UHGV virus genome: UHGV-1333851 | Direction: 5' to 3' (one strand) | DNA: 18,488 bases | From: a virus | Shown: piece by piece, positions 1-14,293 of the stretch | Layout: each line of letters starts with the position of its first letter | How positions within the stretch are numbered: the stretch's first letter is position 1 | The notes under the pieces: model-generated | Databases searched by the model: none | Seen by the model: the letters and a program-made list of their open reading frames with translations, nothing else | What the model was told of the DNA's origin: nothing | Program-made: the position numbers and the translations under genes

Positions 1-550
1 AACAACCAGTGCGTGGGTATATGCAAACAGGTTTTCTATTAATAGTGGTTCAACCTCATGGATTGATATGCGAAACCAAAATGTCATTTTTGGTAAAAAC
101 GCGGTATCAACAAGTTCCGCCCAAGCATTATTAAGACAAGACCATGCTGACAGAAAGTTCTTTATTGGTGGTCTTGGTAATAGCCAATTCGGCTTTTACA
201 TGATTAACAACTCAAGAACCGCAAATGGAACAGATGGTCAAGCATTCCTTGATAGCAGTGGTAACTTCCAGTGTGGTGGGCAAATAGTTCCCGCCAATTA
301 CAGTAATTTTGATTCCAGATATGCACTGAGAACATCTTACGTTTCCAGCGTAAGGATGGGGTCCGTTGCCAGTTATAGCCCACCAAACAACGAAACCTCC
401 TGGACTAAGAACCTTGGTAGCGGACTGGTTATGACAGGGATTATTGTTCAGGAAACAGGAAAAGCTTCTGCCGATAACATCGGTGGTATTTATTATCGGC
501 CAGTTCAATATTGTATCAACGGTACCTGGTATACAGCAGCATCAGTATAA
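1..550 (+). CDS. Tail fibre protein, C-terminal receptor-binding part (5' end outside window; fibre module A)
   Basis: Reading frame open from position 2 to TAA at 548-550 with no stop, so the gene continues upstream. The C-terminus (NYSNFDSRYAL...RPVQYCINGTWYTAASV) is paralogous to the C-terminus of the minus-strand fibre gene at 1684-2781. Followed 14 nt later by a tail fibre assembly gene with a strong SD. Confidence 0.8.
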   Translation, partial: TTSAWVYANRFSINSGSTSWIDMRNQNVIFGKNAVSTSSAQALLRQDHADRKFFIGGLGNSQFGFYMINNSRTANGTDGQAFLDSSGNFQCGGQIVPANYSNFDSRYALRTSYVSSVRMGSVASYSPPNNETSWTKNLGSGLVMTGIIVQETGKASADNIGGIYYRPVQYCINGTWYTAASV

Positions 551-564
551 AAAGGAGGCAGTAT

Positions 565-1080
565 ATGAATAATTTTAAAAACTTCACTTCCTACACGCCG
601 GGAGAAGATAAAAAAGAGCTTATTGATGCTGGAGTTTTATTCCTTCAGGATGAAAACGGTAATGACTGGTATGAATGTCAGAAGTTGTTTTCAGAATCTA
701 CAAGAATAGTTGCATATGATAGTAACGATATAGTTGTCAGCATTACTGATGACGTTTCTACCCTTTGGCCTATAGGATTGTCTGTAGCTGAAGTAGGAAG
801 TTTACCTGAAGATGTAGATATCAACGGTAATTGGGTGTTTAGAAACAACTCAGTTGTTAAACGCATATATTCTGATACAGAATTACAACAGCAAGCTGAA
901 TCAAAAAAGGCAGCCTTGCTTTCACACGCCGAATCAGTAATCGCAACTCTTGAGCGGGCAGTTAAATTGAATATGGCAACTGATGAGGAACGAGAAAAAC
1001 TGGAAGCGTGGGAGCGTTATAGCGTGTTGGTTTATCGTGTAGATACAGCTAAACCAGAATGGCCTGAAGAACCGGAGTGA
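565..1080 (+). CDS. Tail fibre assembly protein (Tfa/U-like)
   Basis: ATG at 565 preceded by AAGGAGG; the ORF-track start at 511 lacks an RBS. The N-terminal ~95 aa are highly similar to the convergent ORF at 1120-1665 (MxNFKxFTSYTP.EDK.EL..AGV.FL.DENGNDWYECQK), as expected for phage Tfa/U proteins. Confidence 0.85.
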   Translation: MNNFKNFTSYTPGEDKKELIDAGVLFLQDENGNDWYECQKLFSESTRIVAYDSNDIVVSITDDVSTLWPIGLSVAEVGSLPEDVDINGNWVFRNNSVVKRIYSDTELQQQAESKKAALLSHAESVIATLERAVKLNMATDEEREKLEAWERYSVLVYRVDTAKPEWPEEPE

Positions 1081-1085
1081 AGTAA

Positions 1086-1112
1086 AGGCCCGATTTATCG
1101 GGCCTATTTCAC
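1086..1112. terminator. Hairpin between convergent tfa genes, putative bidirectional terminator
   Basis: GGCCCGA-TTTA-TCGGGCC stem-loop followed by a T-rich tract (TATTTCACTTT), lying between the convergent 3' ends at 1080 and 1120. Confidence 0.5.
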
Positions 1113-1119
1113 TTTCCTT

Positions 1120-1665
1120 TTAAACTGGCTCAGTAGGCCAGGCGATCGCATTGAAAGTGGCTTTATCTGTTATTGTGTTGAAATCTAATGCATTAACAGC
1201 ATCTATATAGTCCAGCCAGGCGTCAAGAGCTGACTGTTCATCTTCAGATAATATTCTGCCGCGTAGTAATTTTGTCTGGCTAATGACGAGCTGTTGACGT
1301 GCGCTGTTAAGTCGCTCAGTGCGTCTTGATTCCGCCATGTTTTTTAACTCATCTGCGGTTCTTACTCTTTCAACCACATTTTCTCCGTCAAATATCCAGT
1401 TCCCATCAATATCTACTCCATCAGGCAGAGTTTCTATTTCTGCTACAGATGCCCCCACAGGCCAGAGTGTTGAAACATCGTTTGAAATACTCACGACGAT
1501 ATTATCGCTGTCATAAACTATCTTTATCGTATTCTCATGAAAAAATTTCTGACATTCATACCAGTCATTACCGTTTTCATCACGTAAAAATACAACTCCA
1601 GCTTCAACAAGCTCTGACTTATCTTCATCTGGGGTGTAGGATGTGAACTTTTTAAAATTAATCAT
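1120..1665 (-). CDS. Tail fibre assembly protein (Tfa-prime/U-prime-like)
   Basis: Paralog of 565-1080. Start placed at the ATG at 1665 (MINFKKF...), which has GGAG 7 nt upstream; the ORF-track start at 1677 has no RBS. The C-terminal half differs from the plus-strand copy. Confidence 0.85.
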   Translation of the reverse strand: MINFKKFTSYTPDEDKSELVEAGVVFLRDENGNDWYECQKFFHENTIKIVYDSDNIVVSISNDVSTLWPVGASVAEIETLPDGVDIDGNWIFDGENVVERVRTADELKNMAESRRTERLNSARQQLVISQTKLLRGRILSEDEQSALDAWLDYIDAVNALDFNTITDKATFNAIAWPTEPV

Positions 1666-1683
1666 TGTTTGCTCCATTAATAA

Positions 1684-2781
1684 TCATGCTGTGGCTGCTG
1701 TATACCAAGTGCCATTAATGCAATACTGTAAAGGCCTCAATCTTGCTGGGTCGTCACCATCAACTTCACCAATAATCCCAAGCCCTGTAATGACATAGCC
1801 AGCAGTTTCAAACATCGTGCCTTTCTGCATGGTATGAGTTTTATATGCCCCAAGTCTGACGCTGGTCACACAAGCCGTCTTTAATGCGTAACGAGAGTCA
1901 AAATTACTATAATTAGAGGGGGACACCTGACCATTTACAGCAAATGTTATGCTGTTATCAGTATTTCTCTGACTATAAAAATGCCATCCTGAATCATCAC
2001 CTAATTCAGCTACAACAGGACGAGTAGAAGCACCCCATAAATTAAATGTTACGTTCTTTGTGGATGTGTTAGAACTTGATAGTGAAAAAGTTTTACTATC
2101 TCCGGCCAGCAATTTTTTTAAAGAAAAAGCCGCATCATTCTGAAAGCGGAATACTCGCTGACCATTAGCGTAAACATCAAGAATGCCATCACCATTCTGT
2201 TTAAAACCAGTATCATTATCGCCAAGGACGATAGAGTTACCACCAAGAGCATTTGCAGTACCCAGACCAACAGAACCATTAACAGTTAAACCATTACCGA
2301 TTGAAACAGCACCATTGGCGTTGTTAATGGTAAGCGGCCTTAAACTATTCCATGTTCCCAGGCTGTCGCCCGAATTGGTCAACATGAAGTATGTGCTTGA
2401 ACCATCGTTTCGGATAAAGAATCCATAGTCACCCTGTACGATGCGGAAGCCATTTCCTGACTTGGAGACAATCTCACCATCAACCGTTAAACCGCCGGTA
2501 AGAGTTCCTCCGGTTATTGGCAATGCATCAATATCTTGAGGCGTGAGGTTAATGTCTTTTGAACCATCAAACGAAACGGAATTAATCTTTCTCGCGGTTT
2601 TCAGCTTTGTAGCCGTTGAGGCATTGCCGGACAGCTCACCAGAAATGCCACCAACAACTGTTAGATCACCAGTTATTGTGCCGCCTGAACTTTCCAGTTT
2701 TTTAGCAACATCACTCTTAATAGAGTCGATTTCTTTTTTCAGATTAGTTATATCTGCTGGTATCGTTGTCACTGTTGCCAT
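1684..2781 (-). CDS. Tail fibre protein, alternative receptor-binding module B, with its own start codon
   Basis: 365 aa. Contains a phage tail fibre repeat-like motif (NASTATKLKTARKINSVSFDGSKDINLT) and Gly-rich fibre sequence; the C-terminal ~80 aa are paralogous to module A (…RPLQYCINGTWYTAATA). ATG at 2781 has AAGGA 9 nt upstream. Confidence 0.8.
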   Translation of the reverse strand: MATVTTIPADITNLKKEIDSIKSDVAKKLESSGGTITGDLTVVGGISGELSGNASTATKLKTARKINSVSFDGSKDINLTPQDIDALPITGGTLTGGLTVDGEIVSKSGNGFRIVQGDYGFFIRNDGSSTYFMLTNSGDSLGTWNSLRPLTINNANGAVSIGNGLTVNGSVGLGTANALGGNSIVLGDNDTGFKQNGDGILDVYANGQRVFRFQNDAAFSLKKLLAGDSKTFSLSSSNTSTKNVTFNLWGASTRPVVAELGDDSGWHFYSQRNTDNSITFAVNGQVSPSNYSNFDSRYALKTACVTSVRLGAYKTHTMQKGTMFETAGYVITGLGIIGEVDGDDPARLRPLQYCINGTWYTAATA

Positions 2782-2790
2782 ATTAATTCC

Positions 2791-3069
2791 TTACGCCCAT
2801 TCCCGCAGCGGTTGTTCTAATTGAACTTCAAAACCATCAAACATTTGTTGTTTCAAACTGTTGTTTAAAATACGAACATTAACGAAGAAGCCATCATTTT
2901 TAATCACTGTTGGTTCTTCGTTCTCGCCGTTTGGTATTTCGGTATATGTAATACCTACAACATCAAGAAGGATGTTGTTTTGCAGTTCTTCATTATCGTG
3001 CCAGGATATACTCTCTAAAAAAGAGTCGTATTCTTCCCTGTCTCTGAATTTCAACGTAATATCTTTCAT
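2791..3069 (-). CDS. Small protein translationally coupled to the upstream fibre gene; putative fibre chaperone/assembly factor
   Basis: 92 aa. Its ATG overlaps the stop of the 3069-4568 fibre gene (TAATG); its stop lies 9 nt before the start of the next fibre gene. The chaperone role is inferred from position only. Confidence 0.4.
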   Translation of the reverse strand: MKDITLKFRDREEYDSFLESISWHDNEELQNNILLDVVGITYTEIPNGENEEPTVIKNDGFFVNVRILNNSLKQQMFDGFEVQLEQPLREWA

Positions 3070-4568
3070 TAAATAACCTCAGCCATTTGTTGGTCTGTTA
3101 ATGCTTTATGCCATATTCTGAAATTCCTGATATGACCAAATAAATGACGTAACCCTGCTGTAGTCTGGCCTCCAATACGGATGGTTGCAGAGTTCTGAAT
3201 ATAGGACCACGTAGTCTTTTTTTCGCTGGATATGCGCCCGTTACTTACTGAGCACGTAGACTGATCTGATTTTACACGCATCCCCATAACCATTTTTTCA
3301 AGCGATGCGTTTTCGTTTACCCGTCTGTTAGCTCCTCCAATATCGCAATAAGGAAATCCGTCTGGCCCATCTGCCGAAGATCCGAACCCAAGAATAATAG
3401 CCGCTCCGGTTTGATGACCGCTGGTATCAAAAACACGTGGCGCTGCATTTGGCGTTTTATACCAGTTCTTATGTACCTCACAAAGAACCGTAAAAGGAAG
3501 ATTATAAAGATTATTATTAATTGGAACTGTAACTATATCGCTTGCGCGGGTAGCCGCCGTCGTTCCTGAGATAATAAAAGATGATGCACAAGAACCATCC
3601 TCAACTTGAGGGGTAGACAGATAAATATAGTCTCCAGATACGGTTGCTCCGCCCTGCTTAGGAGAATACTGTATCTGAGATCCTATTTTTAACTCATCAT
3701 CAATTGCCTGGATTGTTGCCTCTGCAAAAATCCATCCAGTAGCTTCGTCCTTTCTGACTCTCGCTGTAATCCTTGATGCCGCGCCACCTGTCATATTAAT
3801 TTCAAGCGTTTGTGTATCAATATATGCATCACCAAGAAAAGTTGTTGCACTACCGTCATATTTATCAAAGCGGATACGCAACCTTACCTGTCGTTCTGTT
3901 TTAAAACGACATGAGGTTGTCACGTACTTGTTATCGCCTGAAACATCAACTGACTTTGTAGCAGCAATTGATGCCATATTAATGGCTGATGTTTGCCCAA
4001 TCAGAGAATCGTTACAGACAAACTTTCCATAGGTAAAACCAAAACTATCCGTCCCGGTTTCGGGAACATCCATATTTGACGATCGCCCCCAACTGGCAGG
4101 GTTTTCCGAATTGAGCATGTAGTTTGTTCGTTGTCCCTCAATAAGCAGGCCATCACGTTCAAATCGTGGCTCGTCAATGGCAGCCTCTGTCAGCACACCA
4201 GATTTATTTATATAGGTTGCTTTCGATGCGCGTTTAAACTTAACAACCTTGTCGCCAGGCATTGTTATTTCGTCGTCGCCAATAACAATCTTTTTATATG
4301 ATGGAGAAAAGCCCGCAATCATATCCAGTGAATCATTAAACGGTATCCACACATCTGGCAGCGGTTGAATAATCTTCCTGGCATCCTCCAGTGACAATGC
4401 TTCGACATCCGAGGCTGTTAAAGAAATATCTGCCGAACCGTCAAATGAAACGTTGTTAATCTTCCGCGCTGTTTTCAATTTCGTCGCGGTGTCGGCATTC
4501 CCTGTCAGCGCCCCGGTGATCCCGCCGTTGAAAGTCTGGCGTGCACTCCATGTGTTAGCCGTGCTCAA
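3069..4568 (-). CDS. Tail fibre variable segment C with a C-terminal LamG/concanavalin-like domain; probably expressed only as a fusion after inversion
   Basis: 499 aa from a TTG (ORF-track start) that has no SD. The frame stays open upstream through the crossover site to a stop at 4647-4649. Contains a tail fibre repeat (NADTATKLKTARKINNVSFDGSADISLT). The C-terminus (…LFGHIRNFRIWHKALTDQQMAEVI) resembles the terminal strand motif of LamG-like jelly-roll lectin domains. Confidence 0.7.
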   Translation of the reverse strand: MSTANTWSARQTFNGGITGALTGNADTATKLKTARKINNVSFDGSADISLTASDVEALSLEDARKIIQPLPDVWIPFNDSLDMIAGFSPSYKKIVIGDDEITMPGDKVVKFKRASKATYINKSGVLTEAAIDEPRFERDGLLIEGQRTNYMLNSENPASWGRSSNMDVPETGTDSFGFTYGKFVCNDSLIGQTSAINMASIAATKSVDVSGDNKYVTTSCRFKTERQVRLRIRFDKYDGSATTFLGDAYIDTQTLEINMTGGAASRITARVRKDEATGWIFAEATIQAIDDELKIGSQIQYSPKQGGATVSGDYIYLSTPQVEDGSCASSFIISGTTAATRASDIVTVPINNNLYNLPFTVLCEVHKNWYKTPNAAPRVFDTSGHQTGAAIILGFGSSADGPDGFPYCDIGGANRRVNENASLEKMVMGMRVKSDQSTCSVSNGRISSEKKTTWSYIQNSATIRIGGQTTAGLRHLFGHIRNFRIWHKALTDQQMAEVI

Positions 4569-4598
4569 CAGGGGGATCTTTTCACCGCTGGTACCGAG

Positions 4599-4624
4599 TT
4601 CTCTTAAACCAAGGTTTAGGATTG
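4599..4624. other. Site-specific inversion crossover site (hix/gix/cix-like)
   Basis: TTCTCTTAAACC-AA-GGTTTAGGATTG: two 12-bp imperfect inverted half-sites around a 2-bp core, matching the Hin/Gin/Cin family architecture (TTnTCnnAAACC NN GGTTTnnGAnAA). It is the only canonical AAACC-NN-GGTTT found in the window. Confidence 0.75.
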
Positions 4625-5176
4625 AAATGATGACGCCGGAAACTTCTTATAAAGCGTGGAAACAGCCACATCATAGATGATTGCAACCTGCTTACGGGGG
4701 ATACCCTTCTCCAGCAATCGCCGCATTTGCTGCCATGTTTCTTCTTGGTATTTAGGCCGACGCCCACCTATACGACCTTCTGCGCGAGCTGCATCAAGTC
4801 CAGCGCGTGTACGTTCAACGATAAGCTCACGTTCCATTTCTGCCAGCGCACCCATTACGTGAAAGAAAAAGCGCCCCATTGGTGTACTGGTGTCGATGGA
4901 GTCAGTGAGACTCCGGAAGTTAATGCCTCTGTCACGCAGCTCTTCCACCAGCACAACTAAGTGACGCATGCTGCGCCCAAGACGGTCTAACTTCCATACG
5001 ACCAGGGTATCACCTCTGGAAAGCATACGGAGTACCTTTTTTAACCCAGGGCGCTCAGCCTTTTTGCCGCTCGCCTTGTCCTCAAAAATTAGCTCACATC
5101 CTGCGCTTTCAAGAGCGTTTCGTTGTAAAGCAGTGTTTTGTTCATTTGTTGATACACGTACATAGCCTATTAGCAT
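4616..5176 (-). CDS. cin: DNA invertase, small serine recombinase of the Hin/Gin/Cin/Pin family
   Basis: 186 aa. MLIGYVRVSTNEQ…GDTLVVWKLDRLGRS…GRFFFHVMGALAEMERELIVERT…STLYKKFP matches the resolvase/invertase catalytic domain (catalytic Ser in VRVST) and the C-terminal HTH. ATG at 5176. The stop codon lies inside the crossover site. Confidence 0.95.
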   Translation of the reverse strand: MLIGYVRVSTNEQNTALQRNALESAGCELIFEDKASGKKAERPGLKKVLRMLSRGDTLVVWKLDRLGRSMRHLVVLVEELRDRGINFRSLTDSIDTSTPMGRFFFHVMGALAEMERELIVERTRAGLDAARAEGRIGGRRPKYQEETWQQMRRLLEKGIPRKQVAIIYDVAVSTLYKKFPASSFQS

Positions 5177-5302
5177 ATTTTCTGCTCACTATCGTTATTT
5201 ATAGCAAGCTGCGGATTTTAATTAACAAAACCAGTGTGTGTGGAAATCACAAAGTACATACCGTTTCCCAATGATGTTTATTTAACCATTAAGGAAATAG
5301 TT

Positions 5303-5584
5303 ATGTTTGATCTAAAAATCATTTTCATATCCATCTTTGGCGGAGTGCATTCGTTTCTGAATGGGGTTCGTGAAAAACGTTACGAAGCATCATGCAGGCA
5401 ATTGCTGGCCGAGTGTCTTGCTGCCGTACTTGCAGGCTTTATAGGCATGTGTTTCGCGGAATATAAGGGTATGGATGAAAGTCTTCAGAATTGCGTGACT
5501 CTTATTTGCAGCATCAATAACAGGCTCATTCTTGAAAGGTTACAAAGGCTTATCGATTCGTACCTCAATAGAAATGCCTCTTAA
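5303..5584 (+). CDS. Small membrane protein, holin-like (possibly LydC-like)
   Basis: Start placed at the ATG at 5303 (AAGGAAA 7 nt upstream) rather than the ORF-track start at 5234. Two hydrophobic segments (IIFISIFGGVHSFL, LAAVLAGFIGMCFA). First gene downstream of the invertase on the opposite strand. Confidence 0.4.
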   Translation: MFDLKIIFISIFGGVHSFLNGVREKRYEASCRQLLAECLAAVLAGFIGMCFAEYKGMDESLQNCVTLICSINNRLILERLQRLIDSYLNRNAS

Positions 5585-5604
5585 GCAACAAATGACCGGT
5601 TGAG

Positions 5605-5625
5605 AAGTTACTTTGCATACCATTA
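5605..5625 (+). promoter_or_regulatory. Candidate late-type promoter upstream of lydA-like gene
   Basis: GTTACTTTGCATACCAT: a TTTGCAT element abutting a TANNNT hexamer (TACCAT). The same arrangement occurs upstream of lyz. Possibly a late-activator-dependent promoter. Confidence 0.25.
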
Positions 5626-5651
5626 CCTCCTGACAACGTAGGAGGGAACTT

Positions 5652-5981
5652 GTGCTTGACACACAGGAATTAGCTCCAGTTGCTATTGCGCTCCTGCTTT
5701 CAGTAATTGGTGGGATAGGCACGTTCCTGATGGATGTCCGAGATGGTCGCCAGTCTGGCAATTTGTTGGGATTGGTTACGGAGATCTTTGTTGCAGTGAC
5801 AGCTGGCGCGGTGGCGTACCTATTGGGGCAACACGAAGGCTGGGAGTTATCAATTACGTACTTAATGGTAACGATAGCCAGCAATAACGGTCATGAGGTG
5901 ATTTCAGGGATGAAACGAGTGAATATCGATAGCATTCTGAATGTTCTTACAAGTTTGGTGAAAAAGGGAGGTGGGAAATGA
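5652..5981 (+). CDS. lydA: Holin-like membrane protein (LydA-like)
   Basis: 109 aa. GTG start at 5652 with GGAGGG just upstream. Two or three predicted TM segments (VAIALLLSVIGGIGTFL, IFVAVTAGAVAYLL). Lies immediately upstream of the Hdf/DarA-like genes, as lydA does in P1 by my recollection. Confidence 0.55.
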   Translation: MLDTQELAPVAIALLLSVIGGIGTFLMDVRDGRQSGNLLGLVTEIFVAVTAGAVAYLLGQHEGWELSITYLMVTIASNNGHEVISGMKRVNIDSILNVLTSLVKKGGGK

Positions 5982-6421
5982 TTGGCTGGGGTGTATGCGT
6001 TCTTGCGTTAGCCTTAGCCGATCGCTATTTGCTAAAACGCAAGGACATCACGCATTTAGAACTTGGTGATGTGGAAATTAAACAGGGCTTCATCCGGGTG
6101 CCGTTCAAATACCGGTCTAAATTCCCGTTTTTGCGCGGCGCAACGGTCAGATATTGGATCCGCGATGTTCAGAAGCCAACGACAGTGATTGAAGGCGAAC
6201 AACGTTGTCTGACGTCGGCTGAACAGGGCGAAAACAGTGAATGGTTGTACATACCCACTGAATATATGGGTAAAGGAGAGCGACTGTGGCATTTCAACGT
6301 CATGGTTACGCATGGCGACTCGTTCATTAACCCGTTGTATCGGATTTTCCCTGTTACTCAGAAAATCCGCAGAAGTTACGTAATAAATCTCGCACAGGAT
6401 GTGTCAGATGACGAAAAATAA
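5978..6421 (+). CDS. lydB: LydB-like protein (putative holin antagonist/lysis regulator)
   Basis: 147 aa. ATGA start/stop overlap with the preceding gene and a strong SD (GGGAGGTG). N-terminal hydrophobic segment. Assignment rests on position and size only. Confidence 0.45.
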   Translation: MIGWGVCVLALALADRYLLKRKDITHLELGDVEIKQGFIRVPFKYRSKFPFLRGATVRYWIRDVQKPTTVIEGEQRCLTSAEQGENSEWLYIPTEYMGKGERLWHFNVMVTHGDSFINPLYRIFPVTQKIRRSYVINLAQDVSDDEK

Positions 6422-7010
6422 GTATGCAACGGTCGATTTTGACCAGGTTAATGAAAAGGGGCTGAAATCCCTTATCGCGGCGATCAATAAAACCGGTGTT
6501 ACGGTAATTGAGGTTGACTCCAGCAACCGCGCAACAACGAAAGATGGCGTTAAAGTTAAAACCGCAAAGCTGGTTCTTAACGACGGACAAATTCTTGCCA
6601 TACAGGTAAACGATACTGGCGATATATCGTCTGTGAAACTGAATGGAAAAGCTATTCCTAACGCTCAGTCGCCGGATATCAAGACGCTTGGTACCGTCAT
6701 GGGACAGGCGGCCCGCAAAAACTCCGCAAAATTCCAGAAATCACTGATCGCCAAAGCGAAGCGTGTTGCCAATCCGGTAGACAAGAAACCGGCAGTTAAA
6801 TCCAACTTTCAGCGCCTGCAAGAAGCAAAACAGCGGAATGCTCAGGTGGTTGCCGCTTATAAGTCCGCGCAGAATTCGGTGTCTTTCAATCAACAGCAGA
6901 TCACTGATTTGCGGGCGAAGCTGGATAAGGAGACGGGCCGACTCAATAACGAAAAGGCACGGAATGGCGAACTTAAACGTCGTCTTAAGCAACTGAAAGC
7001 AGGAAATTAA
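6408..7010 (+). CDS. hdf: Hdf-like protein (paralog of a DarA fragment)
   Basis: Start at the ATG at 6408 (AGGA 9 nt upstream). Shares a region with the next, larger gene (L.DGQ…NSAKFQ.…K). C-terminal coiled-coil-like K/R/E-rich tail. Confidence 0.55.
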   Translation: MTKNKYATVDFDQVNEKGLKSLIAAINKTGVTVIEVDSSNRATTKDGVKVKTAKLVLNDGQILAIQVNDTGDISSVKLNGKAIPNAQSPDIKTLGTVMGQAARKNSAKFQKSLIAKAKRVANPVDKKPAVKSNFQRLQEAKQRNAQVVAAYKSAQNSVSFNQQQITDLRAKLDKETGRLNNEKARNGELKRRLKQLKAGN

Positions 7011-7011
7011 C

Positions 7012-8931
7012 ATGGAACAGTTCAATATCAATAAAGGGGTGACGATCAAGCCTGGGCTTGACGTGCTTCCCCCGCCAGTGACTGATGATGAATATCGCGC
7101 ATTAATGGCCGGTGAGGACCGCTATCTGATGACGGAATCCAACACCCTGGAGGAAATCGAGGCTACGTTCTTCTATGACACGCCGATCCACTGGTGTGCT
7201 ACGGATTTACTGGAGGCGATTAGTTCTACTCGTTTGCAGTTACACCGGACCATGCAGGCATTTGTCCGGGCATTGAACCAGAAGCTGAATGGTACCGGAA
7301 TCTCTGCGGGGAGTGATAAAACGGGGGATGTGGCCCAGAGCGGCGCGCGCGCGATCGGCGGCGCTGAAATTGGTCGGGCACGTAACGTTAACGGGCTGCC
7401 GGTCCTGCCAGCCATTATTCCGCTCAGTGATGGTCAGACTATCAGCATTTTGTTTCATAGCCCGACAGCGGAAAACCGGATCACCAATAGCGATACGCTG
7501 GTTGCTTTCCAGTTCTTACTGAATAAAAAAGACGTTACTCACACCGTTGCTCCGATGAGTGGACGTGATATGACGCTGGCGCAGGTCACCATGAAACTTG
7601 CCAACCTTGCAGAGAAAAACTCGGCAAAATTCCAGCGTGCGCAGAAGAAGAAAAAAGCCCTGGTTGATGAAATAACCCAACTACAGGCTGACAGTGACCA
7701 GAAAGAGGATGCCATGAGCGACCTCGCGGATCAGGTGGCAGCGGTAGAAGGCCAGAAGGCAGATCTGGAGCAGAAAATTAACGCGGTTGCTTCGGAAGCG
7801 GATTCTCTTTATCAAGAAAATGAGCGTTTGCAGGCGGAGATTGATCAGCTCAATCGCACTGGTGGGCGCGATACCATTGCTCCAGCGGGGATGACTGGTG
7901 GGCACTCTCGCGCGCTGACGGATCGCCTTGCCAGTATCAAAAATCGTATGCATATGGACGGGGAAGCGACGCTCAGTAATGGTGCATCAATGAAGCAATT
8001 CATTGGGGATGGCGAAGGGTATATCCAGTTAACCGATCCGGATGGCAGCGTATACATGATCAAGGCTAAATCCATACAGGGTGTGGACATGGCAGAAGCG
8101 ATCGGCAAGCTGTTTAAAGCCTATAAAGCGGGTAATGTATCGGAATATCTGGTCCAACCAGAAGAACATAAACCGGAAAACGTCGAACCTGAACCAGCGG
8201 AGGATACCGGTAGCTCTTCGCCTGAACCAGAAGTCTCTGTAGGTGCATATCGATATGCCCTGCAAATGCGTCCGGCGGCCCCTGGCGCAATACCTGAAGG
8301 TAACAAAGCGATTCTGCCGCGCCCTGATGAAGGTGACCCGTATTATGAATATGCACGCTACGGCATTGCTACTTACGATACCCCGCTTTCTGATCAGCAA
8401 ATGAGTGAGTACGACCTGAAGTTATTGCCTCGCGAGGATTCTTTCGACTTCCTGGCGAAGACACTTACTAATGGTCCGTTTGGCAAATATGCACAAAAAG
8501 CTCTGGAGCTGGCCACCAGCTCACCAGACGAGTTCCGCGTAATGCTGAAAACTCAGTTTCAAAAAACTTTCCCCAATATTGCGTTTCCTGGGGGCACTGG
8601 CACCGAGAAAATGGTGCAGAGCATGATCAATGCATTGCAGGCCGAAGTCGGTGAGATTACTCAGCCAGAACCGGCCCCGGCACAGCCTGATGAAACGGTT
8701 AGCGAAGCAGATGCAGAGGCTAATAAAGCCATTGAATATCTCAATAACGTGATGGATATGCAAAGCACTGACATGGCGGAGATCCGTAACGCCCGGGGTA
8801 ATGTCCGGGAAGCTATTGCAGCCCTTCAGGCTGCCGGGCGTTTTGAGGAAAACGAAGAGCTGGTTAATGGCGCAGCTCGCCACCTGGCTGATCTGCTGGT
8901 AGCAATCCAGAAAGCGGGGGTAGCGGCATGA
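7012..8931 (+). CDS. darA: DarA-like head-internal antirestriction / head morphogenesis protein
   Basis: 639 aa with an internal coiled-coil segment (QLQADSDQKEDAMSDLADQVAAVEGQKADLEQKINAV…). Paralogous to the preceding Hdf-like gene. Size and operon position match P1 DarA by recollection; not verified. Confidence 0.55.
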   Translation: MEQFNINKGVTIKPGLDVLPPPVTDDEYRALMAGEDRYLMTESNTLEEIEATFFYDTPIHWCATDLLEAISSTRLQLHRTMQAFVRALNQKLNGTGISAGSDKTGDVAQSGARAIGGAEIGRARNVNGLPVLPAIIPLSDGQTISILFHSPTAENRITNSDTLVAFQFLLNKKDVTHTVAPMSGRDMTLAQVTMKLANLAEKNSAKFQRAQKKKKALVDEITQLQADSDQKEDAMSDLADQVAAVEGQKADLEQKINAVASEADSLYQENERLQAEIDQLNRTGGRDTIAPAGMTGGHSRALTDRLASIKNRMHMDGEATLSNGASMKQFIGDGEGYIQLTDPDGSVYMIKAKSIQGVDMAEAIGKLFKAYKAGNVSEYLVQPEEHKPENVEPEPAEDTGSSSPEPEVSVGAYRYALQMRPAAPGAIPEGNKAILPRPDEGDPYYEYARYGIATYDTPLSDQQMSEYDLKLLPREDSFDFLAKTLTNGPFGKYAQKALELATSSPDEFRVMLKTQFQKTFPNIAFPGGTGTEKMVQSMINALQAEVGEITQPEPAPAQPDETVSEADAEANKAIEYLNNVMDMQSTDMAEIRNARGNVREAIAALQAAGRFEENEELVNGAARHLADLLVAIQKAGVAA

Positions 8932-9293
8932 CACTATCAGCTATTGAGTTAATGGACCTCAGCGATAAGTTGGATGCTCTGATGTCCAAAGCGGCTACCG
9001 CGAGTGGCATGGAGTTGCTGGATATCAGCGATGAAATTGACCAGATCATGCAACAGATGGGGTACGGCGCGTCTGGCGGCGGTAGTGGCGAGGAGAAACA
9101 ACCTTCGGAACATGATGGTGTGCCAAAACTGGTTGCTGATTTCCTGGCTGATAAATTCGTCGATCAGAGCACTGATGCATTTATCGGTACGTTACAGGAC
9201 TTGAGTCAATATGTTGGCACATACATCGACCTGGACCAGGTTAAACAGCACACGGCGGCATGGATAGCCGCCAACATTAAAGAGGCAGCATAA
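8928..9293 (+). CDS. ddrA: DdrA-like small acidic protein
   Basis: 121 aa. ATGA overlap with the darA-like stop. Positional analog of P1 ddrA. Confidence 0.4.
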   Translation: MTLSAIELMDLSDKLDALMSKAATASGMELLDISDEIDQIMQQMGYGASGGGSGEEKQPSEHDGVPKLVADFLADKFVDQSTDAFIGTLQDLSQYVGTYIDLDQVKQHTAAWIAANIKEAA

Positions 9294-9305
9294 GGCGTAA
9301 CAGGG

Positions 9306-12293
9306 ATGAGCTTAAGCGATCAGGTGGTAATGGCCACCAGCATAGAAACGCTGATCGAGCTGCTAAAGAACCTGCCCGATTATGGGCGGGTTTCGTATGT
9401 GGTGACAGCGAAGGGAGACGAGGTAAAAACAGCGTTTGATATCGTCGATGCCTCAGCTCTTTTGGTATCCAATACTCTGGATGGGAAAATTAATCCTGAC
9501 TATCCCCAGGAACTTCAACCGCGCGACCGGACCCGCGCATCCAGCCTTCTTCAGGTTAACCAGATATCCAAAGATTTGCGGCCTGCTCAGCTTACCGACT
9601 CCGGTTTATCCAGCCATGGCGCGCCGATAATTGGTGAGGACAATGCCGTTGAGTCAGGTAATGGGCGGACCATGGGGATCATTAAAGCCTATCAGGACGG
9701 TAATGCGGATCGGTATCGGGAGTACCTGATTGAACATGCGACCGAATTCGGCATACGGCCTGAAAAGGTTGAATCAATGACGGCTCCGGTACTGGTGCGC
9801 CGCCGGTTAACGAAGGTTGACCGTGTTCAGTTTGCCAAGGACTCAAATATTTCTGATCTCCAGGAAATGGCAGCCAGTGAAAAGGCTTTTGTTGATGCCG
9901 ACAGCATAACTCCGGCGATGATGGCGCTTTTTAACCCGTCAGAAAGCGGAGATCTGCTTAGCCGCAGTAATGACGCGTTTATTCGCGGATTTATGACGCA
10001 AGTTGGTGCCACACAGGCGGCTGGCCTTGTAACTGAAGATGGGCGACCAACACGGCAACTTGTAGACCGTATACAAAACGCGATCTTTGCCAAGGCATAT
10101 AAGGATGCGCGCCTGGTAAGGATGGTTGCAGAAGAACCTGATCCGGATATGCGTAATGTTCTGACGGCGCTTAATGCGGCAGCCAATGATTTTGTCCAGA
10201 TGCAGGCTTTATCAGGAGAAGCGCACAAGCAGGCTGTGACAACTATTGTTGATGGCATTGAGACAGCGGATAGCCTCGATAAAAAGGCGCTGGCAGCATT
10301 GAAAGATGCGGTAGACCTGGTAAGGCAATCGAAGGAGTCAGGCCAGCATATTACCGATGTTATTGCTCAGGGGGATATGTTCAGCGAAACGGCCCCGGAA
10401 GTGAAAGCACTCGCGTTGTTCATCGTCGCGAATAACCGTAGCGCGAAGCGTATGGCCACCGCCTTTAAGTTGATGGCTCAACGTATCAATGATGAGTTAC
10501 AGCACCAGGGCCAGGCGCTGGGGGATATGTTTGGCGGCGGCGATGTGTCGTTACAGGATATCCTTCGCCAGGTGTCTCAGGAACTGGAAAACGAAGGCAT
10601 GCAAGGGATATCCGGCGGTCTTTTCGAGTCCGTTTCCGGCGGTAGTTACAACGGTGTTGCTCCGTATACCAGTTTGCTATTACATCGGGCATCCGGCATC
10701 AAAGACATTATTCATCTGATCAGGCTGCTTTCCCGCACAGATCCCCAGGATGAACAGCTTGTACAAGTGCTTGCGCATTTTGTTCGAATGCCTGTTGCCG
10801 ACGTGAAAAAATGGTGCCGATTATTCGGTATCAGCAATTCGTTACTTCGCGGCTTGTTAAATCACGCATCCTCCCTTGGGCGCGATGGCTTTGACGAGAT
10901 AGCGCAGGCGATAAAAAACGGAGATATGCCACCAGCTATTGACTGGTTTTCCATTCGCCCAACCAGGGTGAAAGCATTCCTTAGCGCGGCGCATTCGGCA
11001 TCACCATTGGCAGAAATGGTTCAGAGGTTGTCGCTCATATTCACAGACCATAGCGCGTTGGGTGATCTGACTCTGGACGAGATGAAAGAAGCCTCCATTC
11101 AGTGGGCCGATCAACAAAATGAGGTTAACTCAGACTTCTTGCCAGCATTCAGGAAGGCCGTTAGTAAAGTGGATGATGCCCGTGGAATTCTGAAGGCATT
11201 TAAGGCATTGCAAAGTCGGGTTAATAAACATGTCGGTGATATCGATGGGGTAACGGCGGAAGGCAGGGATATCCTTAAAGAGCACGGCATAACGCCAGAG
11301 TTTATTGATGAGATCAGGACGGATATGCAGCGTGAGGTCGTATCGTCCCTGCAAATCGTAGCCAGAGCGTTGGCGGATGCTAATCCGAAGAGTGCGGCCA
11401 TTGTTAACCGGGTTATTGGTGATATTGAAGCATCGGAGGGCATGGGGGCGCTGAAACTCTTCCTTTCGCGAGCGTTTAATCCTAACGGCAATATTCTCCC
11501 CAGCATTATTGGTGAGGCTAAAAAGCATGTCAGTGAAGAAGAACTTGAGCAGCTTAACCAGCTACTCAATCGATTTTCATATATCCCGCAGAAACGCTGG
11601 CAAATGAATCAGCGTAGTATGGATTCGGTCTACGAGAAAGTGTTATCTGCCATGAACAGTGCGATCGCCAACTCATCCGTATCAGAAGAAAAAGCTCTTG
11701 AGTGGGCCGACTCTTTTATCACGGAAGAAGTGGAAGAAGCCCGCGCTGGACAGAATGGTGGAATAGACCTGCGCAAGGAACTTGCTGATATTTATCGCCT
11801 GACCGGCGGGAAAATATCAACCTTATCAAGGGTAATTCACCACAAGGGTAGGGCGTATGCAAATCTTAATGGTGTTGTTGCTGTCGATTTGCACGATGAA
11901 AATGCAAATGCACTGTGGCACGAGCTGGGTCATCATCTTGAGTACAGTAACCCGGGTTTGTTAGAGAAAGCCAGGTCATTCCTGAAGGCCAATGTTGAAG
12001 GGGATAAGCCATCTTTCGTTAATATTGGTGGGCGTGGCAAGCCTGAATGGTGCTTCAGATCTCGATTGAGTGATATTTATATGGCGAAGGTATACCCGCC
12101 TGTCTCAGTGAGTAATTCTGGTAAATTTCGACACAAATCTCCGACAATTTCCAAAACGTCAGCAACGGAAGTATTCTCTATGGCTCTTCAGTTGTATCAT
12201 GACAAAGAGGCCGCTGCCGCATCACTGATGAATGGTGACGGATTGCTGGAACTGTTATTAGGTGTGGCAAAGGAGCTAAATAATGCAGATTAA
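9306..12293 (+). CDS. ddrB: DdrB-like large virion-associated multidomain protein with a zincin HExxH motif
   Basis: 995 aa. HExxH motif near the C-terminus (ALWHELGHHLEYSNPG). N-terminal region has a possible ParB/Srx-like signature (ESGNGRTMG), unverified. Last large gene of the Dar-like operon. Confidence 0.5.
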   Translation: MSLSDQVVMATSIETLIELLKNLPDYGRVSYVVTAKGDEVKTAFDIVDASALLVSNTLDGKINPDYPQELQPRDRTRASSLLQVNQISKDLRPAQLTDSGLSSHGAPIIGEDNAVESGNGRTMGIIKAYQDGNADRYREYLIEHATEFGIRPEKVESMTAPVLVRRRLTKVDRVQFAKDSNISDLQEMAASEKAFVDADSITPAMMALFNPSESGDLLSRSNDAFIRGFMTQVGATQAAGLVTEDGRPTRQLVDRIQNAIFAKAYKDARLVRMVAEEPDPDMRNVLTALNAAANDFVQMQALSGEAHKQAVTTIVDGIETADSLDKKALAALKDAVDLVRQSKESGQHITDVIAQGDMFSETAPEVKALALFIVANNRSAKRMATAFKLMAQRINDELQHQGQALGDMFGGGDVSLQDILRQVSQELENEGMQGISGGLFESVSGGSYNGVAPYTSLLLHRASGIKDIIHLIRLLSRTDPQDEQLVQVLAHFVRMPVADVKKWCRLFGISNSLLRGLLNHASSLGRDGFDEIAQAIKNGDMPPAIDWFSIRPTRVKAFLSAAHSASPLAEMVQRLSLIFTDHSALGDLTLDEMKEASIQWADQQNEVNSDFLPAFRKAVSKVDDARGILKAFKALQSRVNKHVGDIDGVTAEGRDILKEHGITPEFIDEIRTDMQREVVSSLQIVARALADANPKSAAIVNRVIGDIEASEGMGALKLFLSRAFNPNGNILPSIIGEAKKHVSEEELEQLNQLLNRFSYIPQKRWQMNQRSMDSVYEKVLSAMNSAIANSSVSEEKALEWADSFITEEVEEARAGQNGGIDLRKELADIYRLTGGKISTLSRVIHHKGRAYANLNGVVAVDLHDENANALWHELGHHLEYSNPGLLEKARSFLKANVEGDKPSFVNIGGRGKPEWCFRSRLSDIYMAKVYPPVSVSNSGKFRHKSPTISKTSATEVFSMALQLYHDKEAAAASLMNGDGLLELLLGVAKELNNAD

Positions 12294-12594
12294 AATCGCA
12301 GCGCCATTAGGCGGAGATGCCATTATCGAATTTGATGATAATGAAGAAGTTTCCGGGCGTTTAAGCATTATCTCCGGTGACATTACCGAGGACATGATCG
12401 CTGAAGCCATAGCTGGGGCAAATCCCAATAGCTATATGGGATTCGTTAACACCCTTGATGCTCCCGCAAGTGATGTTCTCCGAACGCTGCATCTTTACGC
12501 TGGCTGGTTTGTTGATTGGCCAGTAGTAGATGGTGGCGATGAGGACGACGACGACGATGATTTTGGTGATCATGTAGACCAGATCGTATATTGA
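12283..12594 (+). CDS. Small highly acidic protein with a poly-Asp tract
   Basis: 103 aa. Start overlaps the ddrB-like stop (ATGCAGATTAA). C-terminal DGGDEDDDDDDFGDHVDQIVY. Followed directly by a strong terminator. Confidence 0.5.
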   Translation: MQIKIAAPLGGDAIIEFDDNEEVSGRLSIISGDITEDMIAEAIAGANPNSYMGFVNTLDAPASDVLRTLHLYAGWFVDWPVVDGGDEDDDDDDFGDHVDQIVY

Positions 12595-12596
12595 AG

Positions 12597-12628
12597 AAAT
12601 CCCGCCAATCGGCGGGATTTTTTTTAAT
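12597..12628. terminator. Rho-independent terminator, bidirectional between convergent operons
   Basis: AAATCCCGCC-AATC-GGCGGGATTT, a perfect 10-bp stem, followed by a T run. Sits between the plus-strand stop at 12594 and the minus-strand stop at 12624. Confidence 0.75.
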
Positions 12629-13412
12629 CGCTTTCCACTTCTTCCGTGGTGTTTTCTTGCAGTTCTGTTAATGCAGCACGACATAGGTTCCGGGCATTGG
12701 CTATAGCCACACTTTTGACTTCATCCGTCATCGTGCAGGTAATGTACTGATCGAGTTCTTCAGCGCGGATGATGCTTTTGCCAATCAGAAACTGTATTTG
12801 CCAGAGCAGATCGGCATCCATAATCAGAATTTCTGCCGGGCCTTCAGGGCCAGCCGGGAAGGAAACATAAGACTGTTTGCCCAGGCCGATAACTCGACAA
12901 CTTGCTTCAAGAATTGCGCGCTTGAGGTCTGACTTTGTAACGGAAACAGGTTGGTTTTCACCAGTGATTATGCCGTTGACATGGAAGTGGAAGGGCATGT
13001 AGCTTGAAATACGCTCTACTTTCCACACGCCAGCAAGCGATCCTTCATGCAGCACAATGGGGGTAACCGCGAGTTTCATCTCACCATATAACTGCTGGCA
13101 GATAGCTGGATTGCTGAATACATCCAAAGGTTCACACTCAAACAGCGGCGCAATCTGCATGAGGTCCATCATGGTCATACCAGGGGTACGAGCAGTAATG
13201 AATCTGCGCATGCCAGTATCCATTGTGCGCCAGATAGCTACACCATGCTTTTTGCTCACTTCTTCAGTAAAGCCAAGGTGGCACATGATGGTTTTTTCGA
13301 TAGCCAGATCAGAGATCGAAACCTTTTCGCCAGGCACACCATCATTATTGATGGTCACTTCGACACTCTGACCATTACGCAGGCGGTATTGAATTGCTTT
13401 AGTATTTTCCAC
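12624..13412 (-). CDS. Hypothetical protein, function unknown
   Basis: 262 aa. GTG start at 13412 with GGAGTG 8 nt upstream; start lies 7 nt after the stop of the preceding gene. No motif I can assign. Confidence 0.55.
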   Translation of the reverse strand: MENTKAIQYRLRNGQSVEVTINNDGVPGEKVSISDLAIEKTIMCHLGFTEEVSKKHGVAIWRTMDTGMRRFITARTPGMTMMDLMQIAPLFECEPLDVFSNPAICQQLYGEMKLAVTPIVLHEGSLAGVWKVERISSYMPFHFHVNGIITGENQPVSVTKSDLKRAILEASCRVIGLGKQSYVSFPAGPEGPAEILIMDADLLWQIQFLIGKSIIRAEELDQYITCTMTDEVKSVAIANARNLCRAALTELQENTTEEVESD

Positions 13413-13418
13413 GTTAAA

Positions 13419-14096
13419 TCACTCCACTACAAACCAGTCACATGCCAGTAAGTCGCCTACAGAAGGAACCCACGGAACAACTACACCTTGTGCATTTTTT
13501 AAGGCGAAATAAGCACCATACGGAACGAGGTCGCCGGGGAAATATCCCTTAATGGCTTCCATTCGTGCCGGGTACTGTCCTTCAGGAACCAGCCAGCAGA
13601 ATTGGTTTTCGCCGTTCCACCCGCGTCGAGCAACTTTCTTGCCATCCTTCAGCCACATCAGCGCGTCAGAAAAGTCGGCTGCTTCAAGGTCGATTTCTTC
13701 TTGTAGAGTAGCGATACCGCCAGCAGAAATAGTTACGTCCCTGGCTGTAATGAATGTCACCCCATTGTGACCTTCAATGCTGAGCAATGCCCCATTTTCG
13801 AAGAAGTCGTTAGTCCGACTAAAGCCTTCTTCAAATGTTTTTTCTGGTGAATAGGACAGAGATCCGTCCTCATAAGCGACCAGATATCCGCCAATTTCTG
13901 GTCGGTGTTTTTGCAAAAACATTTTATCAACATGGACTTTTACCCCTTCTGGCTCAACGACTTCGATGTTGCAAAGAAGGACCACATCCATTAGGGCGAT
14001 AATTTCGATATCTTTGATTTTTGAGGCACGAACTGTTTTATGGCTTTTGTATTTTGGAAGTGCCGTCAAAAGCTCTTTCGTTGTCATGTTATTCAT
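13419..14096 (-). CDS. Two-domain protein with a C-terminal DUF2829 (Tad2-like) domain
   Basis: Start placed at the ATG at 14096 (AGAGGAAA 5 nt upstream), not the ORF-track GTG at 14264, whose extension is R/K-rich and lacks an RBS. The C-terminal ~85 aa (FSDALMWLKDGKKVARRGWNGENQFCWLVP…PWVPSVGDLLACDWFVVE) match the DUF2829 signature as I remember it. Confidence 0.6.
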   Translation of the reverse strand: MNNMTTKELLTALPKYKSHKTVRASKIKDIEIIALMDVVLLCNIEVVEPEGVKVHVDKMFLQKHRPEIGGYLVAYEDGSLSYSPEKTFEEGFSRTNDFFENGALLSIEGHNGVTFITARDVTISAGGIATLQEEIDLEAADFSDALMWLKDGKKVARRGWNGENQFCWLVPEGQYPARMEAIKGYFPGDLVPYGAYFALKNAQGVVVPWVPSVGDLLACDWFVVE

Positions 14097-14293
14097 AGTC
14101 TTTCCTCTGCTTAAAACCTGATGTATTGCGCCTTCAGGTGGGGCAGGATTGTTTTCCCACCAGCGAAAGCAATATCTCGGGGTGTTCTTTTCGTGAAAAG
14201 CGCGTGCCATTGCCAACTTTGGCGTTTGTTTGCGAGTTCGTGCTTTTGTCGGCGTCTGGACCACCGCTTTTCTTTCAGTCGTTTTTTACACAT

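Follow-up and report, generated by a model that had tools for sequence, protein, structure and literature searches.

A P1-type darA operon in the genome of a P1-like phage-plasmid and its natural variation relative to phage P1

Introduction

Phage T4 carries IPI*, a single protein of small size that targets a type IV enzyme. The Dar system of phage P1 differs from it in being made up of six proteins that act in cis (PMC12707154), that are docked in the capsid and that are directed against type I enzymes. IPI*, which has been counted among the restriction-enzyme-binding proteins (PMC5512222), and the polyvalent proteins bearing DarA_N or DdrB-ParB domains are likewise loaded into the capsid, injected with the DNA and active before phage gene expression (PMC12810830, PMC5512222).

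According to PMC12707154, which refers to Iida et al., knowledge of the P1 Dar system dates back to 1987, and its genetic dissection in 2017 is credited to Piya et al. in three later papers (PMC9024508, PMC12810830, PMC12707154). Mass spectrometry of P1 virions has been published together with a table of Dar roles (PMC9024508), in which DdrB is listed as helping DarB to be added to the capsid and in which virions were found to be rich in this protein (39 unique peptides). In 2026, cryo-EM showed the Dar proteins in situ, with 55 DarA-Hdf pairs lining the inner capsid wall (PMC12810830). The homology of Hdf to a DarA fragment, the packaging in the head and the protection from type I restriction are all published for P1 (PMC9024508, PMC12810830, PMC5512222, PMC12707154). 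Other P1-like phage-plasmids of Enterobacteriaceae include Salmonella phage SJ46 and Escherichia phages RCS47, JL22 and P7.

Here, we analysed a stretch of 18,488 nucleotides from the virus genome UHGV-1333851 (hereafter, the window), in which a first-pass annotation had proposed a complete, Dar-like antirestriction operon at 5234–12594.

Results

Identity of the locus

The window derives from a P1-like phage-plasmid (Punavirus). Between positions 4456 and 12592 (about 8.1 kb), it was 97.8% identical to phage P1 (AF234172 / NC_005856) at the nucleotide level, with two gap openings, so that the locus can be taken, from its sequence and with a probability of about 0.96, to be the darA operon of a temperate, P1-type myophage maintained as a plasmid. 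At approximately 98% identity, the looser description of a merely “Dar-like”, distant analogue was rejected; the darA operon found here is an already known system and not a new one.

The order of the annotated P1 record (lydC, LPdar, lydA, lydB, hdf, darA, ddrA, ddrB, hxr) was kept throughout, and the gene-for-gene match involved a single strand (+) with a constant offset of 34 nt. The order lydA lydB hdf darA ddrA ddrB, which the first-pass annotation had given for P1, is exactly that of the P1 GenBank record, and the ORFs were found at the positions it had given. The first position of its span, 5234, corresponds to the GTG that opens the maximal lydC ORF, while the P1 start corresponds to 5303. 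All eight ORFs were intact, without any frameshift or premature stop, and of the same length as in P1, with the sole exception of Hxr. Protein identity to P1 ranged from 96.9 to 100% for LydA, LydB, Hdf, DarA, DdrA, DdrB and Hxr, and was 86% for LydC. Homology to the four P1 proteins with which comparison had been proposed was thus evident (Hdf 99.0%, DarA 98.6%, DdrA 98.3% and DdrB 96.9%).

Synonymous differences from P1 outnumbered nonsynonymous ones in hdf (5:2), darA (21:9) and ddrB (48:31) and no reading frame was broken, which indicates purifying selection on these genes. Identity to P1 was also about 98% for the head and lysis genes that flank the operon (lyz, pro, prt). At gathering thresholds, no Rfam RNA family was found in the window.

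Lysis genes and late promoter

The first gene, lydC (5303–5584), encodes a 93-aa homolog of the LydA-like holins, 80 of whose 93 residues are those of P1 LydC. Alignment to P1 places an AAGGA motif before its ATG, and its match to Pfam Phage_holin_3_3 (E = 2.4e-6, 28.0 bits) fell just below the curated cut-off of 28.4. Since the late promoter LPdar (5605–5623) is located downstream of lydC, this gene is a neighbour of the unit driven by LPdar and stands outside it.

LPdar, which is annotated in P1, was recovered here as the exact 9-bp -22 box AAGTTACTT (5605–5613) followed by the -10 hexamer TACCAT (5618–5623), and the interval between the lydC stop and the lydA start, promoter included, was 100% identical to P1. 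Allowing one mismatch, the 9-mer was matched 4 times in the window for 3.5 expected, i.e., at chance level. Because the 9-mer alone is non-significant, the promoter call rests on positional identity with P1 and not on motif count, and the motif is of no use for locating other late promoters in the window. Over 5100–12800, a scan for sigma-70 promoters returned 5 sites, for 10.1 expected from shuffled sequence; such a generic scan is uninformative here, as is to be expected where a late promoter depends on Lpa. The terminator scan of the same interval gave 11 sites for 7.0 expected from shuffled sequence, which is not above chance.

Downstream of LPdar, lydA (5652–5981, GTG start) encodes a holin of 109 aa, identical to P1 LydA over 100% of its residues, with a Phage_holin_3_3 match of 30.1 bits (cut-off 28.4). 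Its stop overlaps by 4 nt (ATGA) the start of lydB (5978–6421), which encodes the antagonist of the LydA holin (147 aa, of which 143 are identical to P1) and matches Pfam LydB over its full length (E = 3e-102).

Hdf and DarA

The hdf gene (6399–7010) encodes a homolog of a DarA fragment, with 201 of 203 residues identical to P1 Hdf. This length of 203 aa applies to the ATG annotated in P1; the 200 aa initially given for this protein hold for a second ATG at 6408, which is preceded by AGGA 8 nt upstream and which agrees with the 603-bp hdf CDS (200 aa) annotated in the plasmid record CP134893.1. Hdf carries Pfam DarA_N at aa 13–109 (1.1e-21, 77 bits for a curated cut-off of 27), belongs to the PHROG “Hdf-like antirestriction” (5e-80) and matches, over its full length, chain H of the P1 cryo-EM structure (PDB 9ukm_H, 4e-122).

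It is followed by darA (7012–8931), encoding defence against restriction protein A as a precursor of 639 aa, 630 of them identical to P1 DarA. Here, DarA_N was found at aa 66–204 (3.8e-42, 143 bits, same cut-off) and DarA_C at aa 411–472 (5.7e-17), and the match to P1 cryo-EM chain 9ukm_I was full length (E = 0). A second P1 cryo-EM entry, 9vz0, was also matched by both DarA and Hdf, again over their full length, in the PDB sequence search. Coiled-coil matches at DarA 199–283 (APG6_N, Troponin, HALZ) were below cut-offs and were discarded, as they reflect an alpha-helical domain and not homology.

When the two proteins were aligned with each other, Hdf 29–115 matched DarA 107–210 with 29% identity over 105 columns (BLASTP on the pair alone, E = 0.001), which confirms the common block L.DGQ ... 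NSAKFQ noticed beforehand in the translations; together with the independent DarA_N matches, the resemblance goes beyond chance. As judged from their sequences, Hdf and DarA are paralogs with a common DarA_N domain, to which DarA adds DarA_C; the proposal that Hdf is homologous to a fragment of DarA is thereby borne out, as already published for P1.

DdrA, DdrB and Hxr

The darA stop and the start of ddrA (8928–9293) share 4 nt. The 121-aa product of ddrA shares 119 residues with P1 DdrA and belongs to the PHROG “DdrA-like anti-restriction protein” (1e-57); when searched against Pfam, neither DdrA nor Hxr matched a family. The largest protein, DdrB (9306–12293, 995 aa, 964 identical to P1), bears an N-terminal Pfam ddrB-ParB domain (aa 36–167, 2.2e-39) and a C-terminal zincin (HExxH) motif, HELGH, at aa 872–876, in the same position as in P1. 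This ParB-like plus C-terminal metallopeptidase architecture is as described for DdrB (PMC5512222).

The DdrB stop overlaps by 11 nt the start of hxr (12283–12594), the last gene of the cluster, whose 103-aa product is identical to P1 at 101 of 102 P1 residues and has one extra Asp in its acidic tail. Hxr belongs to PHROG 2292, whose function is unassigned, and the gene was labelled a possible Xre-like repressor by the P1 annotators. It lies inside the span of the first-pass annotation, the text of which does not mention it. The overlapping or near-abutting stops and starts along the cluster fit with a single unit of transcription and translation.

Differences from P1 and relatives among plasmids

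Apart from the extra Asp of Hxr, the operon's proteins differed from those of P1 by point substitutions only, which numbered 2 in Hdf, 9 in DarA, 2 in DdrA and 31 in DdrB, those of DdrB being found mostly in the C-terminal third (22 of 31 within codons 703–996). Downstream of the operon, isaB and IS1 are absent, whereas a gene encoding a DUF2829 (Tad2-like) protein of 225 aa, which P1 lacks, is present two genes downstream of hxr, on the opposite strand. The C-terminal 89 residues of this protein match Tad2 anti-Thoeris sponges of solved structure.

We found 440 plasmid records that contain 80% or more of the operon, nearly all of them at 95–99% identity. In CP134893.1 (Escherichia coli plasmid pMB4926_2), it was 99.5% identical over 100% of its length and had the same neighbours as here, namely cin, the DUF2829 gene, ssb, lyz, pro and prt. 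In the two collections searched, no record matched the full 18.5-kb window from end to end, the best one covering 89%, because the tail-fibre C-segment (1–4455) is mosaic.

The start of prt is 34 nt past the right end of the window, and darB and ulx lie beyond that end in P1 as well as in the closest relative. In the P1 record, darB starts 76 nt beyond prt; in CP134893.1, prt is followed by a 6768-bp gene annotated “N-6 DNA methylase”, in the position of darB, then by a 441-bp gene. By analogy with CP134893.1, the source genome is likely to carry darB and ulx beyond the window. The word “complete” was thus right for the darA operon, which the window contains in full, but not for the six-protein Dar system, which it contains only in part.

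Discussion

Behind LPdar, which is the same as in P1, a single compact unit is arranged, with the genes of the holin LydA and the holin antagonist LydB, which control the timing of lysis, at its head, then hdf, darA, ddrA and ddrB for virion-internal proteins, and hxr at its end. Because the proteins are 97–100% identical to those of P1, we infer their further roles from the published P1 work. By analogy with P1, Hdf and DarA would pair via their common DarA_N fold, and 55 such pairs would be located at the penton-hexon junctions of the inner capsid surface, in contact with both capsid and DNA. These pairs would set head size, and the loading of all other Dar proteins would depend on them, while head maturation would remove an N-terminal piece of approximately 9 kDa from DarA. 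DdrA would be the component assigned against EcoA-type enzymes, DdrB would assist the loading of DarB, and DarB, with Ulx, would guard against EcoB and EcoK. On ejection, the Dar proteins would accompany the DNA out of the head and shield from type I restriction-modification (EcoA, EcoB, EcoK) only those molecules with which they had been packaged, i.e., act in cis.

The division of labour within this known system may be seen differently. It is possible, although we lean against it, that Hdf and DarA are chiefly capsid-assembly proteins, acting as head-size determinants and as a docking platform and not as antirestriction effectors, in which case the phenotype of hdf or darA mutants would be indirect and explained by heads that have lost DdrA, DarB and Ulx. 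Loading dependencies do complicate the interpretation of dar mutants (PMC12707154), in line with such a structural role, as is the lining of the inner capsid wall by the DarA-Hdf pairs. However, the N-terminal domains of both proteins contact DNA, and the pairs are released with it, a direct protective role having been proposed (PMC12810830); in any case, this question leaves the identity of the locus unaffected. Somewhat more doubtful is the view that DdrB is more than a helper in DarB loading, namely a polyvalent protein injected as an enzymatic effector, whose zincin peptidase would cleave DdrB itself and whose ParB-like domain, once in the new host, would act on DNA or nucleotides. Autoproteolysis to a packaged form of about 76 kDa and a nuclease or NTPase activity of the ParB type have indeed been predicted (PMC5512222), both the ddrB-ParB domain and the conserved HELGH motif are present here, and the abundance of DdrB in virions (PMC9024508) points in the same direction. 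By contrast, the role table of that same study lists only the addition of DarB to the capsid, and the PDB sequence search with DdrB matched no solved structure.

We consider it highly improbable that the operon is decaying and non-functional, as a remnant within a P1-like plasmid that is itself defective. Mosaicism is seen in many P1-like plasmids, and insertions do occur in this region in some relatives (insQ/TnpB or gldA beneath the match in H41 and H44). However, the eight full-length ORFs, the intact LPdar, the dominance of synonymous changes and the conservation of the flanking head and lysis genes argue against decay, and pseudogenisation was rejected on the intact frames and on the excess of synonymous over nonsynonymous differences.

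The preferred reading, against which nothing in the sequence speaks, is a darA operon belonging to a P1-type phage. The practical yield is that the window is securely identified as belonging to a P1-type phage-plasmid, that the first-pass annotation is validated and that the genes can take P1 names. The discovery value is little, the same operon being found in hundreds of sequenced enterobacterial plasmids. Natural variants are nevertheless offered to a P1 laboratory, in the form of the C-terminal substitutions of DdrB, the ambiguous start of hdf, the absence of IS1/isaB and the extra Tad2-like gene, none of which is surprising.

It is quite unlikely that two further ideas hold together, namely that the Dar operon and the Tad2-like gene form a small anti-defence island in this lineage and that the substitutions clustered around the peptidase domain of DdrB are adaptations to different host defences. 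Should both hold, P1-type phage-plasmids would have injected antirestriction proteins alongside a signal-sponge module that is expressed. The identity of the darA operon is left unchanged by either idea. One Tad2 paper in which phage P1 is mentioned does not deal with the DUF2829 gene, P1 having served there only as a test phage.

Identity and Organization of the Operon

The region 5234-12594, proposed in the first-pass annotation to be a Dar-like operon encoding head-internal antirestriction proteins, is the already-known darA operon of Escherichia phage P1, carried here by a P1-like element; that interpretation is supported. When the whole window was compared with phage records by megablast, P1 and its relatives (P7, RCS47, SJ46, JL22, and D6-type phages) aligned to 64-74% of the window with identities of 97-98%. 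In a direct comparison with P1 (AF234172), 4456-12592 aligned as a single block of 8138 columns, 97.8% identical, with 175 mismatches and two gap openings. P1 is annotated across this block with cixL, cin, lydC, the late promoter LPdar, lydA, lydB, hdf, darA, ddrA, ddrB, and hxr, plus iddB as an ORF antisense to ddrB, in line with the order lydA to ddrB given in the first-pass annotation.

On the + strand, 5234-12594 is a tightly packed run of ORFs, the stops and starts of which overlap or almost abut, and the coordinates and protein sizes proposed earlier were correct when set against them. The run comprises lydA (5652-5981, 109 aa; 109/109 residues identical to P1), lydB (5978-6421, 147 aa; 143/147), hdf (6399-7010, 203 aa; 201/203), darA (7012-8931, 639 aa; 630/639), ddrA (8928-9293, 121 aa; 119/121), ddrB (9306-12293, 995 aa; 964/995), and hxr (12283-12594, 103 aa; 101/102). 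The lydA/lydB and darA/ddrA junctions are both ATGA; the gap between hdf and darA is 1 nt, and that between ddrA and ddrB is 12 nt. Gene lengths are those of P1 throughout, except for Hxr, in which a C-terminal poly-Asp tract holds one Asp more (103 vs. 102 aa). Inside ddrB, the counterpart of iddB is a predicted antisense ORF (9827-10258, - strand), open over 143 aa here vs. 132 aa in P1 because its stop lies further downstream.

LPdar, with its -22 box AAGTTACTT (5605-5613) and its -10 box TACCAT (5618-5623), lies between the lydC stop and the lydA start, an interval 100% identical to P1. lydC (5303-5584, + strand), contained within a 116-aa maximal ORF opening at GTG 5234, lies upstream of LPdar and is therefore a neighbor of the late transcription unit, not part of it. 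It has diverged more than any other gene in this block (80/93 residues identical; 14 nonsynonymous and 4 synonymous codon differences), 7 of the 14 nonsynonymous changes being located in the first 12 residues.

The start of hdf is ambiguous (6396-6410). ATG 6399 (203 aa) is the start adopted in both the GenBank record of P1 and the PDB entry, while the 200-aa protein of the first-pass annotation corresponds to the same ORF read from the second ATG, 6408, which is preceded 8 nt upstream by AGGA (6396-6399). The hdf CDS annotated in the close relative CP134893.1 is 603 bp long (200 aa), and the PHROG Hdf family, 200 positions long, aligned to residues 4-203.

Hdf/DarA Paralogy and Protein Domains

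The suggestion that Hdf and DarA share a homologous block was borne out: BLASTP of the two window proteins aligned Hdf 29-115 with DarA 107-210 (29% identity, E = 0.001), including LNDGQ/LSDGQ and a KNSAKFQ present in each. Pfam DarA_N independently matched both Hdf (1.1e-21) and DarA (3.8e-42), the latter also carrying DarA_C, and both proteins matched deposited P1 cryo-EM chains over their full length (9ukm_I/H and 9vz0). The Asp and Asn of the two shared motifs, originally reported as L.DGQ and NSAKFQ, may correspond to residues described in a published study.

As for the other products, LydA matched the Pfam LydA-holin family, LydC fell slightly below its cut-off, and LydB matched the LydB family over its full length. 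DdrB contains a DdrB-type ParB domain (Pfam; aa 36-167) and a conserved HELGH (aa 872-876), the same ParB plus zincin-peptidase architecture as described for P1 DdrB; a PDB sequence search returned no solved relative of it. The Pfam search found no family for DdrA or Hxr, although P1's annotators named the latter an Xre homolog; DdrA matched the PHROG "DdrA-like anti-restriction protein" and Hxr an uncharacterized PHROG.

Completeness, Integrity, and Expected Function

The qualification "complete" holds for the operon but not for the Dar system, two of its six genes being outside the window. The window ends 34 nt before the start of prt, and in P1 darB starts 76 nt past prt. The closest relative is the E. 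coli plasmid pMB4926_2 (CP134893.1; operon 99.5% identical), where prt is followed by a gene of 6768 bp, occupying the darB position, and then by one of 441 bp.

Every operon frame is intact in the window, as is the promoter. Synonymous and nonsynonymous codon differences from P1 number 5:2 in hdf, 21:9 in darA, and 48:31 in ddrB, so that most are synonymous; ssb, lyz, pro, and prt, the lysis and head genes nearby, are approximately 98% identical to P1. At the sequence level, nothing suggests decay of the operon. In DdrB, 22 of the 31 amino acid differences are clustered in the C-terminal 294 codons (703-996; 11412-12293), around HELGH, and nucleotide identity of ddrB is approximately 93% at 11540-12140 vs. 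98-100% elsewhere. This cluster could stem from recombination with a different P1-type lineage or from selection, either relaxed or diversifying.

Given protein identities of 97-100%, the operon would be expected to act as it does in P1. There, the Dar system protects from several type I restriction systems and acts only in cis, shielding the DNA with which its proteins were packaged (PMC12707154). Mass spectrometry of P1 virions detected Hdf, DarA, DdrA, DdrB, DarB, and Ulx; Hdf and DarA are assigned to determining head size and incorporating the Dar system, DdrA to EcoA antagonism, DdrB to aiding DarB addition to the capsid, and Ulx to aiding DarB localization (PMC9024508). By cryo-EM, 55 DarA-Hdf pairs line the inner capsid wall at penton-hexon junctions, touching both capsid and DNA; DarA lacks residues 1-69, consistent with Pro-dependent processing, and the pairs are gone from heads after DNA ejection (PMC12810830).

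The operon is an ordinary, widespread module of P1-type phage-plasmids. Used as a query (5600-12594), it was found in 496 plasmid records, at an identity of at least 95% in 492 of them, and a single place covered at least 80% of the query in 440. The hosts were mainly E. coli, with some Salmonella, Klebsiella, Citrobacter, and Shigella.

Flanking Regions

To the left, cin (4616-5176, - strand; Resolvase and HTH_7) is preceded by an invertible tail-fiber C-segment (1-4455) unlike that of P1, with which it shares only short patches at 72-75% identity. No second cix site was found within the window. This segment is a mosaic, 3100-4367 being 93% identical to side-tail-fiber genes of other E. coli phages that do not belong to the P1 group, for example HannyBb, Tritos, and PhiR63_1. 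Two oppositely oriented tail-fiber assembly genes (511-1080, + strand; 1120-1677, - strand) form a 276-nt inverted repeat (74%), followed by a Gp34_trimer domain protein gene (1684-2781, - strand).

Downstream of hxr (12595-13412), there is no counterpart of isaB and the IS1 copy of P1 (approximately 1.7 kb there). On the - strand, a 262-aa ORF whose stop lies 29 nt past that of hxr is 96.6% identical to residues 60-320 of P1 IsaA (C-terminal 261). Between this homolog and ssb, a 684-bp segment (13409-14092) is absent from P1, and the annotated 57-aa N-terminus of P1 IsaA is equivalent to the leader preceding the DUF2829/Tad2-like gene located here, fused to the downstream gene. No Rfam family was found in the window. 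The Tad2-like neighbor and the clustered DdrB substitutions are the most novel residue of this analysis, as side notes outside the operon finding. The likely CDS of the former (13419-14096, - strand) encodes 225 aa from a probable ATG, within a maximal ORF of 281 aa (13419-14264), and matches Pfam Tad2-like (2.5e-22). Its C-terminal 89 aa match the solved Tad2 anti-Thoeris sponges 9eib (6e-20) and 8v3e (8e-20), the N-terminal part of approximately 135 aa lying outside this match. The gene is a candidate anti-Thoeris or signal-sponge gene beside the Dar operon. SJ46, vB_EcoM-Ro157c2YLVW, and pMB4926_2 carry it as well.
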